UHGV virus genome: UHGV-0091736
Source: a virus
DNA: 64,000 bases
Reading direction: 5' to 3' (one strand)
Numbering within the stretch: position 1 is the first letter of the stretch; each line of letters begins with the position of its first letter. Position numbers and translations under genes: made by a program. Under the pieces are notes generated by a model. That model was not told where the DNA came from, ran no database searches, and saw nothing but the letters and a program-made list of their open reading frames with translations. Shown here in pieces: positions 534-42,403 of the stretch.

Positions 534-2225
534 ATGCATATCAATTACCTTAGCACAACGAACTCCATCCTTCTCAATCCACTTGTTAAGGAACATCATA
601 GCGTATTTCATAACAACAGCACCAGCACATTGCAGGAGTGTGTTAAGTGCTTTATGAACCATAACTTTACCAGTGGCATCTCGTCTCATTGTAATCTTGC
701 GACCATCAACACCAATCAAGTACCCTTGAGCAGCTTTCTCTGTCATGCGATCAATGAGGATTGCAATACATGGGTTCTCTGCCAAGAAACGTGCTCGCAT
801 CACTGAACCTTCATCAGCCCCGCCACCTACAATTGAACCAAGCTTAGCATCACCAGCACCATAGTTGAATGCATAGATAAATGTCTTAGCATTGTCACGA
901 GTAGGGAGACCAGCAAGTTTCTGGTTGTGGGAGTGGATATCCCCTTCGAGGAGAATATCACGATACATAATAGCAGAAGCTAAACCGCGTTCTGCCAGAG
1001 CTTTCTTAGCTGGATTATTCTCTTCGATTGCTTCAGCAAGCATATCTCTACATTCTTTGATGAGGTAGTGAGCGAGCATACGAAGTTCAAGTCCAGAACC
1101 ATCATACCCTAAGAATACTTCTTTACCAGCGGGTATGTAATATTTGTAAGCACCTACAGGTTTGTCTTTCTTCCCCGGCTTACCTTTCTCGTAAATTACG
1201 TTAGTACCTTTTCGTATATAACAACCATCAGGAACAACGTTAGTAATAACGAAAGGACGAGAGTGATCACTGTCTGAGTTATAGTCAGACTCAAACAAAC
1301 TGCGACACTCGTGACCAAACAAACCACGGGAGGGAATATTAACCACGATACGATGTTTGAATCGAAAAGTCGGCGTAGCGCAGCTGTTAGCTTCTGCCGA
1401 AAGTTTACCATCTTCGCGTTCCTTTGCTATAAGTCCACTGATAAGACCTAGCCTGTGAGCCGCTACAACACGTCTCTTAAGCAAACTTCCAACACTCCCT
1501 AGCTCACCCCCTAACCCTTCTTCAAGAGTCTCCTCGAGGTTTGTAGGAGCTGTAGGCCACTTGTTTGATGTAGCTAGTGCTTTCTTAATCTCATCAAACG
1601 TTACAGGGTTACGGCGATTAGGGTTTAATCCCAAACCAAACACGTAAGCCTTCATGTAATTCTTAGTCTTAAACCTAAAATGCTTTTCTAAGAATTTCTT
1701 GATATCAGCGTCAACCATCTCGGCTGTCTGCTTCTGCTTAGCACTGCCTCTCATCCAAGCAGTGTACCAAGCCTGATATGTTCCATACTTTCGCATGTCT
1801 TTCTTAATTTCGAAAGTATTCCAAGGCTTCTTAGATACGTTAAACTCTGGAGGAAGAAAGCCCTCATCCATAAGAGCTTCTTTAACTCGTGCATCTTTCG
1901 ATGGGTCAAAGTCTACATATTCTACACAGGTGAATGCTCCACCAATGTCTTCTCTCTTCAGCCCAACCCTATCACAATAAGCTTGAGGCCACTTCTGCAA
2001 AGCACCAGACTTCTTAAACGGCTTCATGTAAGTAGAGCCATCTAATCTCATCTTAGGTAAGAGAGGAATCAACTCTCTATCAATATTAACAATAATCTCT
2101 TTAAGGAGGTGAACATACCACCGAGCATTTCTTCGGTTGAAACTCACTCCGTGCTTTGCTTGCTTAGAGATTATATCAGCGACAGTCATCTCTGTCAAAA
2201 ATGGAAGAGCGTCCGGGTTGCTCAC
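534..2225 (-). CDS. DNA polymerase family A, polymerase domain, exon 1 (GTG start; ends at H of motif C HDE)
   Basis: Motif A LGYDGSGLELRMLAHY and motif B RDNAKTFIYAFNYGAG. AAGGAG RBS 7 nt before the GTG. ORF track 504-2225, trimmed to the predicted 5' splice site. Confidence 0.85.
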
Positions 2226-7537: not shown

Positions 7538-7593
7538 ACATCGATATCCTTATAAAGATAAAACCCCGTCTATTCCTAGACAGGGTTTGAGTT

Positions 7594-27781: not shown

Positions 27782-27858
27782 TGGCGCACCGTGTAGGACT
27801 CCAACCTACAACCTATTTCTTAGAAGGAAATTGCTCTCTGCAATTGAGCTAACGGCGC
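27782..27858 (-). tRNA. tRNA-Arg (anticodon UCU), CCA encoded
   Basis: Hand-folded cloverleaf: GCGCCGT/ACGGTGC acceptor, GCTC/GAGC D stem, ATTTC-CTTCTAA-GAAAT anticodon arm, GTAGG-TTGGAGT-CCTAC T arm, G, CCA. 77 nt. Confidence 0.85.
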
Positions 27859-32789: not shown

Positions 32790-32824
32790 AAAAGAAAAGG
32801 CGCTACCCGTTAAGATAGCGCCTT
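32790..32824 (-). terminator. Rho-independent terminator (minus; symmetric hairpin)
   Basis: AAGGCGCUA-N10-UAGCGCCUU then UUCUUUU. Confidence 0.6.
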
Positions 32825-32846: not shown

Positions 32847-33746
32847 TTATGCCGCTTGACGTGCTGCCATAATCTCAGCTGCCTTGCGTAATACTTCTTC
32901 TTCTTCTGCTTTCGCCGCTTGTTCAGTACGGGTAGCAACCGTTGAAGAGATACGACCGCGCAGGTTATCTAACTTCTCCTGCATAGCTGAAACAGCTTTT
33001 TCCATTTCATCAGCATAGGAGTCTAGAGATTCCAGTTCCTTGCTTGATGCGTTCATCAGATAATCATCGGAGATCGCTACCGTTGAAGCCGTAACTTTCT
33101 TGATGAGTGAGTCGAAAGACTTTTTAACCTTCCCAACTTCTTCACTCAAGGCAATAGTGTTATCGCTAGTTGCGCCGTTGCGCTCATCTGCCAGCAATTT
33201 AGATTCAATACGGATGGCATTCAAGCGTTCAACCAAAGCGTAAATATCTTGGTTAAAATCTTCCTTGTTTTTCGCCGGAATTTGCAGGTGTGCCGCCACG
33301 TTGTCATTGCAACCTTTGTAGAAGTTAGGATTATCCACTTCAATTGCACGACCTAAAGCAAAGTTTTCGAAAGCATTTGACCAGCGAGCGCGGTTTTGTT
33401 CCATTTTGGTTTTAATTTGCGCTTCTTTCGCATCTTCTTTCGCTTTCGCTTCACCTTCCAGATTAATCCACTTCTTACGACCGTTCGCCGCATCAGTGTT
33501 AAACTTGATAGGAGTTAAGAAAGTGATCGCGGTAGAAATAACATCCATATCGCGGAAACGTTCAGTTAACAGAAAATCAACAGCCGCTTGTAATACGTCC
33601 AGCTTCTTACCGTTGCTGCGGAAGTGCTGTAAGTGCCCTAACAGGAAGTTAGAAACATCTTGCTTAATCGCTGCGTTATTGCTGCGGATGTTGTTAGCCA
33701 GAGCGTTAAAACCAGATTCGTTAACCAGATTAAAGATTTTAGCCAT
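32847..33746 (-). CDS. hypothetical helical protein (299 aa); first gene after the long leader
   Basis: AAGGTG SD 7 nt before the ATG at 33746. The ORF track GTG at 33755 lies inside the SD. Confidence 0.6.
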   Translation of the reverse strand: MAKIFNLVNESGFNALANNIRSNNAAIKQDVSNFLLGHLQHFRSNGKKLDVLQAAVDFLLTERFRDMDVISTAITFLTPIKFNTDAANGRKKWINLEGEAKAKEDAKEAQIKTKMEQNRARWSNAFENFALGRAIEVDNPNFYKGCNDNVAAHLQIPAKNKEDFNQDIYALVERLNAIRIESKLLADERNGATSDNTIALSEEVGKVKKSFDSLIKKVTASTVAISDDYLMNASSKELESLDSYADEMEKAVSAMQEKLDNLRGRISSTVATRTEQAAKAEEEEVLRKAAEIMAARQAA

Positions 33747-34568
33747 GATATTCACCTTTCAATTGTAAGGGCGCTATTGCCCCGCTCTCTATGAGCTTGT
33801 TTAAGTCACTATTAACTTAACTCTAACCACTCACTTTTTAAGTAGTTACAGGTAAGCGGGGCGGTCTTATCAGGAGTTAACCTTGCCGCCCCCTTATCCG
33901 TGATGTTTCATCTGGTATCTTTAATTAGTCGCTATAAATAAAGCCGACCTGATAGCGATGATCAATCATCACAATAAGGCAGTGCGTCCGACTCTAATTA
34001 GTTACGTTTATTGTAACCGTCGGCAATATCGTCTACTTTGCTTTCGCTCTCGCCTATCCTTTTGTATTAACTCTCAATCGCTAGTCATCGCCCACTACGG
34101 GATACTATTGCGAAAGAGTCATTAACCGTCTAATATTCCGACGTTTTATATCTTTCAGCGAGTTTACTACATAAACCGACTATGTACTTTCATCATAAGA
34201 CGAATCTCAAGCCGTTCACATCGTAAACGTTCACACTAAACCTTATTGTTAAATAGCAATTTGCCACTTTTTAACCGCTCCCCGCCGCCCTCAATTGGGC
34301 GTTAATTTGTCGGACTTGTCTACCCTGATTAACTTCTTTCACTGTAGCGCCTTGTTAGCGATGACCGCCGCTACCCTTAACCGTGGGCGATTAGCTTAAG
34401 CCTTTGCGTGCACTCAGTGAATCCGTTTATCAGTGGTGACGTTTCCAGTAAGGGATTGCAAGACTGTTTCCTCTGATAGTTTAGAGAGCCTTACATCGTT
34501 TTATCTGGTACGCTTTCCGATGGTTATTATCATCAAGCATATTCAACCGATATAGAAGAACGTTTAAA

Positions 34569-34582
34569 TTGTTAAAGAGCGG
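34569..34582 (-). promoter_or_regulatory. boxA-like antitermination element 1 (CCGCTCTTTAACAA)
   Basis: GCTCTTTAACAATTTA is a 16-nt identity to the E. coli rrn leader boxA region as I recall it. Preceded by hairpin AGCGTG-AGTAAA-CACGCT. Confidence 0.6.
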
Positions 34583-34671
34583 TAAATCTATCAGCGTGTT
34601 TACTCACGCTATGCAACTGTTAGCCGTTGTCTCGCTTTTCACTTAAGCGGTGATTTGCTTAGTGAGTGCTC

Positions 34672-34700
34672 ATTATGAATCATGTTGTTTTAGCTGTCAA
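34672..34700 (-). promoter_or_regulatory. strong sigma70 promoter (TTGACA-N17-CATAAT)
   Basis: -35 at 34695-34700 and -10 at 34672-34677, read on the minus strand. Confidence 0.7.
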
Positions 34701-34802
34701 CCACTTTTTTAATCTTTTTCGTCGTTCCCATTATCGGGAGGATATACCAATCAGCTTTATTTGATTGGAGATTAAGCGGTGATGCTTAACTTATGATTCA
34801 TA

Positions 34803-34816
34803 TTGTTAAAGAGCGG
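34803..34816 (-). promoter_or_regulatory. boxA-like element 2 (CCGCTCTTTAACAA)
   Basis: Exact repeat of element 1. Preceded by hairpin AGCTAACAC-GAT-GTGTTAAGCT. Confidence 0.6.
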
Positions 34817-34932
34817 TTACTACATTCACAGCTTAACACATCGTGTTAGCTTGTCAACTCTTTCTATCGTCTTCTTTTTCTCTCTCTCCCTCTGTCTCGC
34901 GTGAATCTATGCGAAAGGGCAAGACGATCAGT

Positions 34933-34946
34933 TTTTAAAGAGCGGG
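34933..34946 (-). promoter_or_regulatory. boxA-like element 3 (CCCGCTCTTTAAAAA)
   Basis: About 25-35 nt downstream of the predicted TSS of the 34978-35006 promoter. Confidence 0.55.
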
Positions 34947-34977
34947 GATTTTTTAAGTCATCGCTGACTGAGTGCTC

Positions 34978-35006
34978 ATTATGAATCAGGCTTTTTCCGG
35001 TGTCAA
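34978..35006 (-). promoter_or_regulatory. strong sigma70 promoter (TTGACA-N17-CATAAT), near-duplicate of 34672-34700
   Basis: -35 at 35001-35006 and -10 at 34978-34983. Shares GATTCATAATGAGCACTCA with the other copy. Confidence 0.7.
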
Positions 35007-35042
35007 TACTCTTTTTAAGAATATTTTCACTTTTTAGCCTGA

Positions 35043-35056
35043 TTTTTAAGGAGCGG
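35043..35056 (-). promoter_or_regulatory. boxA-like element 4 (CCGCTCCTTAAAAA, degenerate)
   Basis: One substitution in the core relative to GCTCTTTAA. Confidence 0.4.
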
Positions 35057-35232
35057 TTGAAGTCTCTCTCTTCACGGGGTATTGCGTAGTTCCCAACGTT
35101 CTCTGCCACCGCGCTATAGGTAGTGGCTTAGTATCCGACAATCAGACCTTCTTCACTCGGTGAAGCCCGGCCCCTCAATTTACTGTTAGTGAGGCGGTTA
35201 CAGTGTACCTGCTACCGATTCCGTGGTGGCGT

Positions 35233-35260
35233 CTTACTGCTTGTTGCTTACTGCTTACTA
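35233..35260 (-). repeat. four tandem heptamers (minus: TAGTAAG CAGTAAG CAACAAG CAGTAAG)
   Basis: Plus strand reads CTTACTG CTTGTTG CTTACTG CTTACTA. Starts at the predicted TSS of the 35269-35296 promoter. Confidence 0.6.
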
Positions 35261-35268
35261 CGGGATTC

Positions 35269-35296
35269 ATATTACTATACAGGAAAACCCTGTCAA
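35269..35296 (-). promoter_or_regulatory. sigma70 promoter (TTGACA-N16-TAATAT)
   Basis: Read on the minus strand. Confidence 0.55.
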
Positions 35297-35382
35297 TACC
35301 CTTTTTTCAAATTATTTTTCATCTCACTGTTTTCTAAAGGAATTTATTTTATTGTCAGTAGGACACCGGAAGGAATCAGGAG

Positions 35383-35395
35383 GTAAAAGAGCGGG
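35383..35395 (-). promoter_or_regulatory. boxA-like element 5 (CCCGCTCTTTTAC; lambda-nut-like CGCTCTTxxAC)
   Basis: Read on the minus strand. Lies between the 35.5-kb terminator and the 35.29-kb promoter. Confidence 0.35.
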
Positions 35396-35493
35396 AGCGC
35401 GTGATACATCACAGGAAACGGCTTGTAAAGCAGTAATAAGCGTCCTAAAACGCATCACAACGAGCTAAAAGGGAGTAAGGCATACAATCACCT

Positions 35494-35524
35494 TAGAAAA
35501 TAGAAAAGCCTCTTAATGAGGCTT
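35494..35524 (-). terminator. Rho-independent terminator (minus)
   Basis: AAGCCUC-AUUAA-GAGGCUU then UUCUAUUUUC. Follows the 35601 stop. Confidence 0.6.
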
Positions 35525-35600
35525 ACAGGAAGGATTTAAAGCATCAGATAGATTATGACCATAGGCATGACCACGGCACAATACAGGAGAAAGATTAAGC

Positions 35601-35966
35601 CTATGGATTTACACATTGACCGTTACCGGATTCTACTTCGTTCATGGACTCATCAAAGAGTGTCAACGATGAGCGCATCAGGTGATCGACCGTGATTTGT
35701 TTACCAGTGGTTTCATTTACTAATAGAATAGTTTTACTATCTGATTGCACATGTTCGAAATCATTTACATGTAAAATAATAACTTTAGGTGACTTTTTAC
35801 CAGTGTCATAATTCTCAATCAAATAGGTGCACTGTAAACCGTCAACCGTAGCAGGGGAAAACGTTGCAGCCCTTACGCTACCCAAAGATGATAGCAGGAC
35901 ACCTAACAGGAGAACAACCAGAAAGAAGCCTACAACCATTTTAACTAAGAATTTAATAAACCACAT
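35601..35966 (-). CDS. secreted/membrane-anchored hypothetical protein (121 aa from MWFIKF..)
   Basis: N-terminal hydrophobic segment VVGFFLVVLLLGVLLSSLGSVRA. The ORF track start at 36053 is less likely. Confidence 0.5.
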   Translation of the reverse strand: MWFIKFLVKMVVGFFLVVLLLGVLLSSLGSVRAATFSPATVDGLQCTYLIENYDTGKKSPKVIILHVNDFEHVQSDSKTILLVNETTGKQITVDHLMRSSLTLFDESMNEVESGNGQCVNP

Positions 35967-41464: not shown

Positions 41465-42403
41465 CCATATGAGTCTATGGCTATATTCGCACAGTGCGTC
41501 ACACGTACACTCACAACTAAAGGTCTAGTTACAATTACAGCTACACCAGAGAACGGTTTAACTGAACTGGTAGATAAATTTATGAAAGGTGAAGGGGATG
41601 AGAACACAGGTTCTCTATATTTCCAGAATGCTTCTTGGTGGGATGCTCATGCAGACCTAGGTGGACATATCACTGACCAAGATATAAAAGATATGACTGA
41701 AGGTATTCCAGCGTGGCAGTTAGAGATGCGTTCGAAAGGTATGCCATTGTTAGGAAGTGGTTTGATATATGATGTATCGGATGACACAATTAAATGTGAA
41801 CCATTCGAAATTCCTGATACGTGGAAACGTGTCTGTGCAATTGATATTGGTATTGATCACCCAACTGCTGCTGTTTGGACAGCTTACGATGCAAACACGG
41901 ATACTGTCTATGTTTACGACTCATATAAAGAAGGTGGCTTTACTCCAGTGTATCATGCTCCAGCTATTAATGGTCGTGGTCAGTGGATTCCTGTCATCCT
42001 ACCGCATGATGCGGACAATATTGAGAAAGGTAGTGGATCATCTGTTGCTCAATTCTATAAGAATGCAGGAGTTAATGTACAGAGTGAGACCTTCTACAAC
42101 AAAATTGGAATGGATGGTAAAAAGAACTTCTTTGTAGAACCCGGAATCACAGATATCCGAGAAAGAATGATGAGTGGACGCTTTAAAATCTTTAACACAG
42201 CTGCTAACGCTAAGCTATTCGAAGAGAAAGCTAGATATCACCGCAAGGTTGGTAAGATTATTAAAGAACATGATGACTTAATGGATGCAATGCGCTATTC
42301 AGCGTGCTCTGTTACACATCGTGGTCGCTCTAAGCATGACGTTAGCTACGGAAGTGCTTCTCTGTATGAGGCAAACGTAAGCAGATGGAATCAGAGTTAC
42401 TAA
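41465..42403 (+). CDS. terL: terminase large subunit, exon 2 (ATPase C-motif and nuclease domain)
   Basis: ..TRTLTTKGLVTITATPENG.. (coupling motif) and CAIDIGIDHP.. (RNase H-like nuclease). Confidence 0.8.
   Translation, partial: PYESMAIFAQCVTRTLTTKGLVTITATPENGLTELVDKFMKGEGDENTGSLYFQNASWWDAHADLGGHITDQDIKDMTEGIPAWQLEMRSKGMPLLGSGLIYDVSDDTIKCEPFEIPDTWKRVCAIDIGIDHPTAAVWTAYDANTDTVYVYDSYKEGGFTPVYHAPAINGRGQWIPVILPHDADNIEKGSGSSVAQFYKNAGVNVQSETFYNKIGMDGKKNFFVEPGITDIRERMMSGRFKIFNTAANAKLFEEKARYHRKVGKIIKEHDDLMDAMRYSACSVTHRGRSKHDVSYGSASLYEANVSRWNQSY

Follow-up and report, generated by a model that had tools for sequence, protein, structure and literature searches.

Predicted rrn-type boxA elements paired with tandem early promoters upstream of a structured leader RNA in a phiEco32-like coliphage

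The virus genome UHGV-0091736, of which a stretch of 64,000 nt (the window) has been analysed here, carries on its minus strand a spacer in which predicted early promoters for the host RNA polymerase alternate with copies of boxA, an RNA element of the Escherichia coli ribosomal RNA (rRNA) operons, rrn. These copies are probably genuine rrn-type boxA elements, which would act in the RNA and load the host Nus complex onto the polymerase for the transcription of a leader and of the early operon behind it. Sequence analysis lends good support to the idea that rrn-type boxA RNA here recruits the host complex of NusB/S10, NusG, NusA and SuhB. Each predicted sigma-70 promoter of the spacer has one boxA 3' of it, and all copies lie in the direction of transcription. 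Between positions 34300 and 35700 an identity of 88-93% has been found to the phiEco32-like coliphages phiEco32, SU10, PH444 and EC.W2-6 (Gordonclarkvirinae, Kuravirus), and by this sequence comparison the window phage is a phiEco32-like (Kuravirus) coliphage. The counterpart of the locus in phiEco32 is a spacer of ~1.9 kb between genes 125 and 124, which is free of open reading frames (ORFs) and houses the main leftward early sigma-70 promoters. In SU10 and phiEco32 a terminator follows the small upstream operon, three sigma-70 promoters have been described in the SU10 spacer, and the early class comprises genes ~125 down to ~69 in both phages (PMC4281155).

Tandem promoter-boxA pairs in the early spacer

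The original prediction had counted five copies of an rrn-type boxA in this region, and the minus strand does carry each of these strings where it had placed them, with the correction that the 15-mer CCCGCTCTTTAAAAA occupies 34946-34932 and not 34946-34933. Compared with the gamma-proteobacterial consensus GYTCTTTAANA (PMC5725501), the five are of unequal quality. Exact consensus matches have been found for boxA1 (CCGCTCTTTAACAA, 34569-34582, match at 34580-34570), boxA2 (likewise CCGCTCTTTAACAA, 34803-34816, match at 34814-34804) and boxA3 (CCCGCTCTTTAAAAA, 34932-34946, match at 34943-34933), the last being of the rrn-spacer type, whereas the two others are degenerate and fail the consensus. 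Of the five, probably just three function in this phage. The 64-kb window holds four exact matches to the consensus where 0.45 +/- 0.72 are expected, and none of 100 shuffles has reached four; three of the four lie on one strand within 374 nt, and by a rough estimate the chance of such a three-match cluster anywhere in the window is ~1e-7. The isolated fourth match, GTTCTTTAATA at 42259-42269 (minus strand), lies outside the early spacer and is probably a chance match. As to the degenerate copies, boxA4 (CCGCTCCTTAAAAA, 35043-35056) reads GCTCCTTAAAA, with U5 changed to C, and its orthologue is a perfect GCTCTTTAAAA in phiEco32, SU10, EK010 and others. The boxA5-like copy (CCCGCTCTTTTAC, 35383-35395) reads GCTCTTTTACC, which has four T residues and is without AANA; this variant is conserved in four relatives (L004, L005, L012, L013), and its function is doubtful.

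The likeness to the host element extends beyond the consensus. A 16-nt sequence, GCTCTTTAACAATTTA, is shared by boxA1 and the E. coli rrnB leader (MG1655), as had been stated in the original prediction, and the A-rich copies of the boxA3/4 type resemble the boxA of the rrnB 16S-23S spacer, GCTCTTTAAAAATC. The further statement that the core contains the lambda form CGCTCTTA is literally untrue, the phage core CGCTCTTTA having the three T residues of the rrn form. The distinction between the three-U rrn form and the lambda form matters because NusB:NusE binds rrn-type boxA with an affinity of 5-8 nM and the lambda nut boxA with 80-90 nM (PMC2800207). The lambda nut site is comparable in that boxA and host Nus factors serve the processive antitermination of phage early transcription; its boxA, however, is of the lower-affinity form CGCUCUUA, and its boxB lies downstream and binds N, in contrast to the rrn-form core and the upstream hairpins of the present phage. 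A nut site of the lambda type, in which boxA is followed by a boxB hairpin within ~10 nt, has been rejected for this locus, the conserved hairpins lying 5' of boxA. Such hairpins had been claimed upstream of three copies, and they are present. The one before boxA1 (34592-34611, minus strand) takes the position of the rrn boxB, is predicted by RNAalifold as a 7-bp stem with 3 compensatory pairs and ends ~10 nt upstream of boxA1, and boxA3 is preceded by AGTCA-GCGA-TGACT, which appears as GGTCA..TGACC in some relatives. No short hairpin has been found directly 3' of boxA1, where the first predicted helix begins ~30 nt downstream.

All four predicted promoters lie on the minus strand. P_A (35269-35296) reads TTGACA-16-TAATAT, while P_B (34978-35006) and P_D (34672-34700) both read TTGACA-17-CATAAT, with 11 of 12 consensus positions. 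P_C (34830-34857) is weaker, with an extended -10 element (TTGACA-16(TGT)-TAAGCT), and the site reads TTGACA-16-TAGAAT or TAAGAT in relatives. P_D has been called as a promoter in 14 of 17 related genomes, the other three (L004, L006, L014) having TTGACG there. The sequence AAAAAGAGTATTGAC (35016-35002, minus strand), which comprises the upstream A-tract and the -35 region of P_B, has a 15-nt identity to the A1 promoter of T7 (L023, 452-466). Measured from transcription starts that have been deduced from the -10 hexamers, boxA4 lies at ~+209 from P_A, boxA3 at ~+30 from P_B, boxA2 at ~+10 from P_C and boxA1 at ~+88 from P_D. Read along the minus strand, the order is a terminator-like hairpin, the boxA5-like copy, P_A, boxA4, P_B, boxA3, P_C, boxA2, P_D, boxA1, the leader, the homologue of phiEco32 gp124 and a second terminator-like hairpin. 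The placement of boxA downstream of early promoters, as originally predicted, holds for boxA1 to boxA4, each of which follows a predicted sigma-70 promoter, and fails for the boxA5-like copy, which lies 5' of the promoter cluster and 3' of the terminator-like hairpin of the preceding operon. The last copy, boxA1, is 3' of every promoter of the spacer. An ORF of 81 amino acids at 34864-35109, which spans boxA4, P_B and boxA3, has been dismissed, since in relatives the sequence here is exchanged one module at a time.

Conservation in relatives and occurrence in other phages

The spacer has been compared in 17 Gordonclarkvirinae genomes and eight metagenomic relatives. A protein-based search of IMG/VR for the locus had returned only 4 near-identical loci, and the relatives have therefore been drawn from a phage collection, from which the spacers of 16 relatives across Kuravirus, Suseptimavirus and Nieuwekanaalvirus were gathered. 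The search for conservation of the motif, proposed with the original prediction, has yielded 70 exact GCTCTTTAA cores in the spacers of the 17 genomes, 3-5 per genome, and all 70 are in the transcribed orientation and alternate with near-consensus promoters (TTGACA-16/17-xAxxxT). The eight metagenomic relatives have the same layout of promoters and boxA. The promoter modules vary in number and identity between genomes, yet a boxA is still found 3' of every spacer promoter in the whole set. For boxA2, the column identity is 0.97 in the motif and 0.54 in the 40-nt flanks, the latter being low because different promoter modules precede the motif in different genomes. The copy boxA1 is present in 17/17 genomes and 7/8 metagenomic loci with a motif column identity of 0.97, and it varies at position 10 only. 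Over 41 unique contexts, position 10 has been found as A 26, C 10, T 4 and G 1 times, while position 11 is A in 41/41, position 12 is A in 40/41 and position 13 is T in 36/41; one metagenomic relative carries GTTCTTTAACA. The variation is therefore confined to the two degenerate positions of the published consensus. Changes are thus seen only at tolerated positions of the motif, as under purifying selection, and this sequence pattern is the one that selection for NusB-NusE binding would predict, and that neither chance nor simple duplication would.

The closest known parallel is found in T7, where CGCTCTTTAACAATCTGG lies at about 812-830, 3' of the promoters A1, A2 and A3 and 5' of gene 0.3. 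The 14-mer CGCTCTTTAACAAT is identical in T7, in Kayfunavirus and in boxA1 and boxA2 of the window. There is thus a precedent for a virulent phage whose early leader carries an rrn-type boxA independent of N, and the window phage carries the same sequence after early promoters of the host polymerase, near the early-gene end of the genome. To our knowledge, an N-like protein is known in neither T7 nor phiEco32-like phages, and none has been found among the six neighbouring ORFs of the window that were scanned against PHROGs, five being of unknown function and one labelled terminase. In T7, as far as PMC3709561 relates it, mutations in the boxA anti-termination element make Gp2 dispensable (Savalia 2010), and when Gp2 is missing, boxA-antiterminated host transcription interferes with the infection. 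T7 and the present phage are alike in being virulent, in using the host RNA polymerase for early genes and in encoding a small protein that later shuts off early sigma-70 transcription (Gp2 in T7, gp79 in phiEco32). They differ in that the one boxA of T7 follows all three promoters and lies only ~95 nt before gene 0.3, in contrast to the 3-5 copies in promoter-boxA cassettes and the ~840 nt of structured RNA before the first gene in phiEco32-like phages.

A part of the spacer is itself common to T7-like phages. The early-leader cassette at 35033-35246 (minus strand), which begins with the P_A transcript and has boxA4 at its 3' end, has 82-90% identity to Kayfunavirus, and the matches there (GA2A, Mt1B1_P3 and Salmonella ST35/KE14; L019 595-802, L020 643-850 and L021 1501-1671) begin immediately after a host-type early promoter. 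Therefore, whole promoter-leader-boxA cassettes have moved between unrelated podophages. Some helices of the cassette covary. Folded in isolation, the cassette does not exceed shuffled sequence in stability (z = 0.54), and phiEco32 has a different, shorter insert at this position. A scan of IMG/VR for CGCTCTTTAACAATYT has returned at least 120 loci, of which, by estimate, chance alone might give tens. Among the matches listed, 107 could be assessed; a near-consensus sigma-70 promoter lies within 400 nt upstream of the motif in 44 of them and within 400 nt downstream in 6. Tandem arrays of near-consensus sigma-70 promoters, each followed by a boxA, have been observed in the T5-like Proteus phage Stubb (terminal-repeat early region; L096, 4600-5900), at the left end of the SP6-like Klebsiella phage K1-ULIP33 / Vectrevirus (L027) and in the further records L073, L114 and L119. 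In these arrays of other virulent phages, the distance from the first base of the -35 hexamer to the start of boxA is 45-62 nt.

The structured leader RNA and the role of boxA

Between boxA1 and the start codon of the gp124 homologue lies an untranslated stretch of ~840 nt (33745-34583, minus strand), within which no minus-strand ORF of at least 30 amino acids has been found. RNAalifold has predicted for it, from 11 diverse sequences, a structure of 236 pairs in 35 helices. The number of compensatory pairs is 66, compared with 29.5 +/- 3.6 for shuffled columns (0/500 reach 66) and with 4-8 when the partner columns are slid. Paired cells amount to 98.6% in the observed alignment, 92.7% with shuffled columns and 33-48% with partner columns slid by 1-3, the paired fraction being inflated since the structure has been predicted from the same alignment that was counted. 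Nevertheless, compensatory pairs are far more numerous than in either control. Long-range helices covary as well (for example columns 428-433 with 538-543, 6/6 pairs), and the minus strand is taken as the RNA strand because there are many invariant G-U pairs. Rfam (15), scanned across the entire window at gathering thresholds and in 33600-35700 at E <= 1, gives no match, and the leader shows no similarity to E. coli genomes; the structured RNA has so far been found in Gordonclarkvirinae only. A sixth boxA-like motif, GCTATTTAACAATA (34258-34245, minus strand; GCTATTTAACA, GCUAUUUAACA), is invariant, but it carries C4A and lies inside helices 16/17 of this RNA and has been rejected as a boxA. 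C4A lowers the NusB:NusE affinity ~40-fold in lambda boxA16 (PMC2800207).

The favoured mechanism would start with the host sigma-70 RNA polymerase at the four tandem strong early promoters, P_A to P_D, each nascent transcript exposing a boxA within roughly 10 to 210 nt. NusB-S10(NusE) would bind to boxA and, together with NusG, NusA and SuhB, form an rrn-like elongation complex for which no phage N-like protein would be required. The main gain would be that the untranslated and highly structured leader of ~0.9-1.5 kb is transcribed without Rho-dependent termination, after which the modified polymerase would go on, fast and processively, to transcribe the long early operon. This complex may also aid the folding of the long-range helices of the leader, as for 16S rRNA, and passing the intrinsic terminators beyond may be an additional, lesser benefit. 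Long non-coding transcripts are targets of Rho that boxA protects, with boxB and boxC not required for rrn antitermination (PMC6614797), the boxA-modified polymerase is described as resisting Rho and acting as an RNA chaperone (PMC6614797, PMC6614801), and Salmonella arrays of clustered regularly interspaced short palindromic repeats (CRISPR) are protected by boxA by the same logic (PMC7665894). By analogy, the ~840-nt structured RNA is of the sort for which boxA provides protection in rrn operons and CRISPR arrays.

Several observations weigh against this mechanism. The transcription starts in the spacer are predictions, and the leader is mostly G-rich rather than C-rich and is not rut-like; being highly structured, it may also resist Rho by itself. 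The retention of 3-5 copies goes beyond simple antitermination, for which one boxA after all promoters would suffice, as in T7. In RNAalifold predictions boxA1 pairs with other segments, these pairs are invariant, and the pairing, if real, could compete with NusB/E. Finally, Salmonella phage 7-11, a more distant relative that is now placed in a different family, has no consensus match on the early (minus) strand of its 3' 50 kb (L024, 40000-89916), which means that boxA does not go back to the common ancestor of the phiEco32-like phages in the wide sense.

The original prediction had assigned the boxA copies chiefly to read-through by the host polymerase of a series of intrinsic terminators across the early arm of ~30 kb, which we consider possible but doubtful. 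The minus-strand terminator-like hairpins it had named at 32824, 31499, 31413, 28820, 24510 and 3252 have all been recovered, as pattern matches, and a further one has been found at 7588. The genes of the early class reach ~28 kb past at least five such hairpins, which early transcripts must therefore cross (PMC4281155), and no sigma-70 promoter better than 9/12 has been found on the minus strand between 33.7 kb and 11.4 kb. For T7, the account in PMC3709561 also has boxA-antiterminated host transcription entering regions that are normally transcribed by T7 RNA polymerase. Against this, N-independent boxA complexes have been documented as anti-Rho and RNA-chaperone machines (PMC6614797, PMC6614801). 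The terminator hairpins of the early arm are pattern matches only, and the distal genes could also be served by partial natural read-through or by promoters of the phage sigma factor (gp36). Moreover, rrn antitermination is reportedly weak at intrinsic terminators (Albrechtsen et al. 1990). Protection of a long untranslated RNA from Rho fits the known facts better than read-through of intrinsic terminators.

A second alternative starts from the pairing of boxA1 itself. Its sequence CCGCUCUUUA pairs with UAGAGAGCGG (33791-33782, minus strand), 36 nt upstream of the gp124 start, in a 10-bp RNAalifold helix that closes the whole 0.8-kb RNA; UAGAGAGCGG is a perfect complement of boxA1 when one G-U pair is counted, and it is conserved in all relatives. 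In this modelled structure boxA1 would mainly be the 5' strand of a long-range closing helix that brackets the RNA for processing or for control of gp124 translation, comparable to the leader-trailer helix of rrn or to the boxA-mediated repression of suhB. Both strands of the helix are conserved in 11/11 sequences, and the chance of such a complement within 800 nt is estimated at ~0.02-0.03. We nevertheless regard this role as improbable: of the helix pairs, nine are invariant and the tenth is lost in two sequences, so that covariation lends no support, the 3' partner coincides in part with a site annotated in SU7 as weakly promoter-like, and the helix leaves unexplained boxA2-4 as well as the same motif in T7-like phages without this RNA.

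Even less probable is that the boxA copies on abundant early RNAs serve as decoys, which would titrate NusB/S10/SuhB from the host rrn operons and thereby contribute to host shut-off. It is true that 3-5 sites of the high-affinity type behind four strong promoters exceed what antitermination needs and that each copy is individually conserved, but T7 and Kayfunavirus manage with one copy, the copies are always promoter-proximal in cis, as expected for loading onto a transcribing polymerase, and host shut-off by phiEco32 has already been ascribed to gp79 (PMC12276001). That the motif is a binding site in double-stranded DNA, or a passenger of duplicated promoter cassettes, is scarcely credible: boxA does lie ~47 nt upstream of the next -35 hexamer in many genomes and could be read as a promoter-upstream element, but the distance to the next promoter ranges from 47 to 115 nt, 70/70 copies point the same way, no promoter follows the last copy, T7-like phages carry the motif after their last promoter, the variation follows the RNA-binding consensus, and the copies within one genome have the motif in common and differ in their flanks.

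Likeness to known systems and neighbouring features

Apart from the shared 16 nt and the spacer-type copies, the locus of the window resembles the E. coli rrn operon in its tandem strong promoters, in having more than one boxA per transcription unit, in the hairpin 5' of boxA that is placed like boxB, and in the long structured untranslated RNA that follows. It differs in that a GU-rich boxC is not evident, that each promoter has its own copy, up to five in all, and that the RNA behind them is no rRNA and leads into protein-coding genes. The boxA of Salmonella CRISPR arrays (PMC7665894) and that of the suhB 5' untranslated region (PMC5725501) are likewise N-independent, lie outside rrn operons and have the same consensus, and the former protects a long untranslated transcript from Rho (PMC7665894). 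Both are, in contrast, single copies in cellular genes, and the suhB element is repressive and lies less than 50 nt from the start codon. The ~840-nt RNA can also be compared with GOLLD and ROOL, to which it is similar in size, in being encoded by a phage and in being supported by covariation; unlike them it is continuous with an mRNA, and it matches no Rfam family, GOLLD and ROOL included.

In the literature searched, nothing has been found that links phiEco32, Kuravirus or Gordonclarkvirinae to boxA, early antitermination or a non-coding RNA. An earlier mention is possible in the primary phiEco32 papers (Savalia 2008, Pavlova 2012), because these come from the laboratory that described the T7 boxA. 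What is new here are the tandem promoter-boxA cassettes, one of which is common to Kayfunavirus, and the position of the last boxA at the 5' edge of a covarying RNA of ~840 nt. If the favoured mechanism is true, the N-independent hijacking of the host Nus machinery by boxA would not be limited to T7 but would also be found in another, unrelated group of virulent coliphages, which includes candidates for phage therapy, and a concrete and testable answer would be at hand to how phiEco32-like phages express an early arm of ~30 kb from one promoter cluster. The finding also suggests wide occurrence and horizontal exchange of the promoter-boxA cassette as a module of early expression. The large structured phage RNA, which may need the rRNA transcription and chaperone complex for its synthesis, would also offer a compact system for studying this complex outside ribosome biogenesis. 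Only tentatively, the idea may be carried further, in that the early locus would mimic an rrn operon: tandem promoters of rrn-like strength and boxA would recruit the rRNA antitermination and chaperone machine to make and fold an undescribed RNA of ~0.8 kb, which would be made in bulk in the first minutes and have a role in host takeover or anti-defence, and the cassette would be a mobile module among Kuravirus, T7-like, SP6-like and T5-like phages.

For phage 7-11, the published description states that the antitermination strategy "remains to be defined". Its right-end region of ~1.1 kb upstream of gene 151 contains validated early promoters, is ORF-free and structured-looking and has no boxA match.

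On the upstream side, the spacer of the window is bordered by a terminator-like hairpin at 35506-35524 (minus strand), which closes the small operon of homologues of genes 128-125 and is an annotated terminator in SU10 and SU7. On the downstream side, the first gene after the leader is the homologue of phiEco32 gp124 (32847-33746, minus strand, ATG at 33746; phrog_13018), which encodes a protein of 299 amino acids with unknown function. It is followed directly by the first strong intrinsic-terminator-like hairpin of the early arm (32797-32824, minus strand), which has a 12-bp stem and then a T tract and is annotated as a terminator in SU7. Far downstream, at 2170-2198 (minus strand), a perfect 12/12 sigma-70 promoter (TTGACA-17-TATAAT) with a TG extension has been observed, with no boxA after it; it may be the sigma-70 promoter that has been reported upstream of the phage sigma-factor gene. 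The early arm also contains a tRNA-Arg(TCT) gene at 27782-27858 (minus strand).

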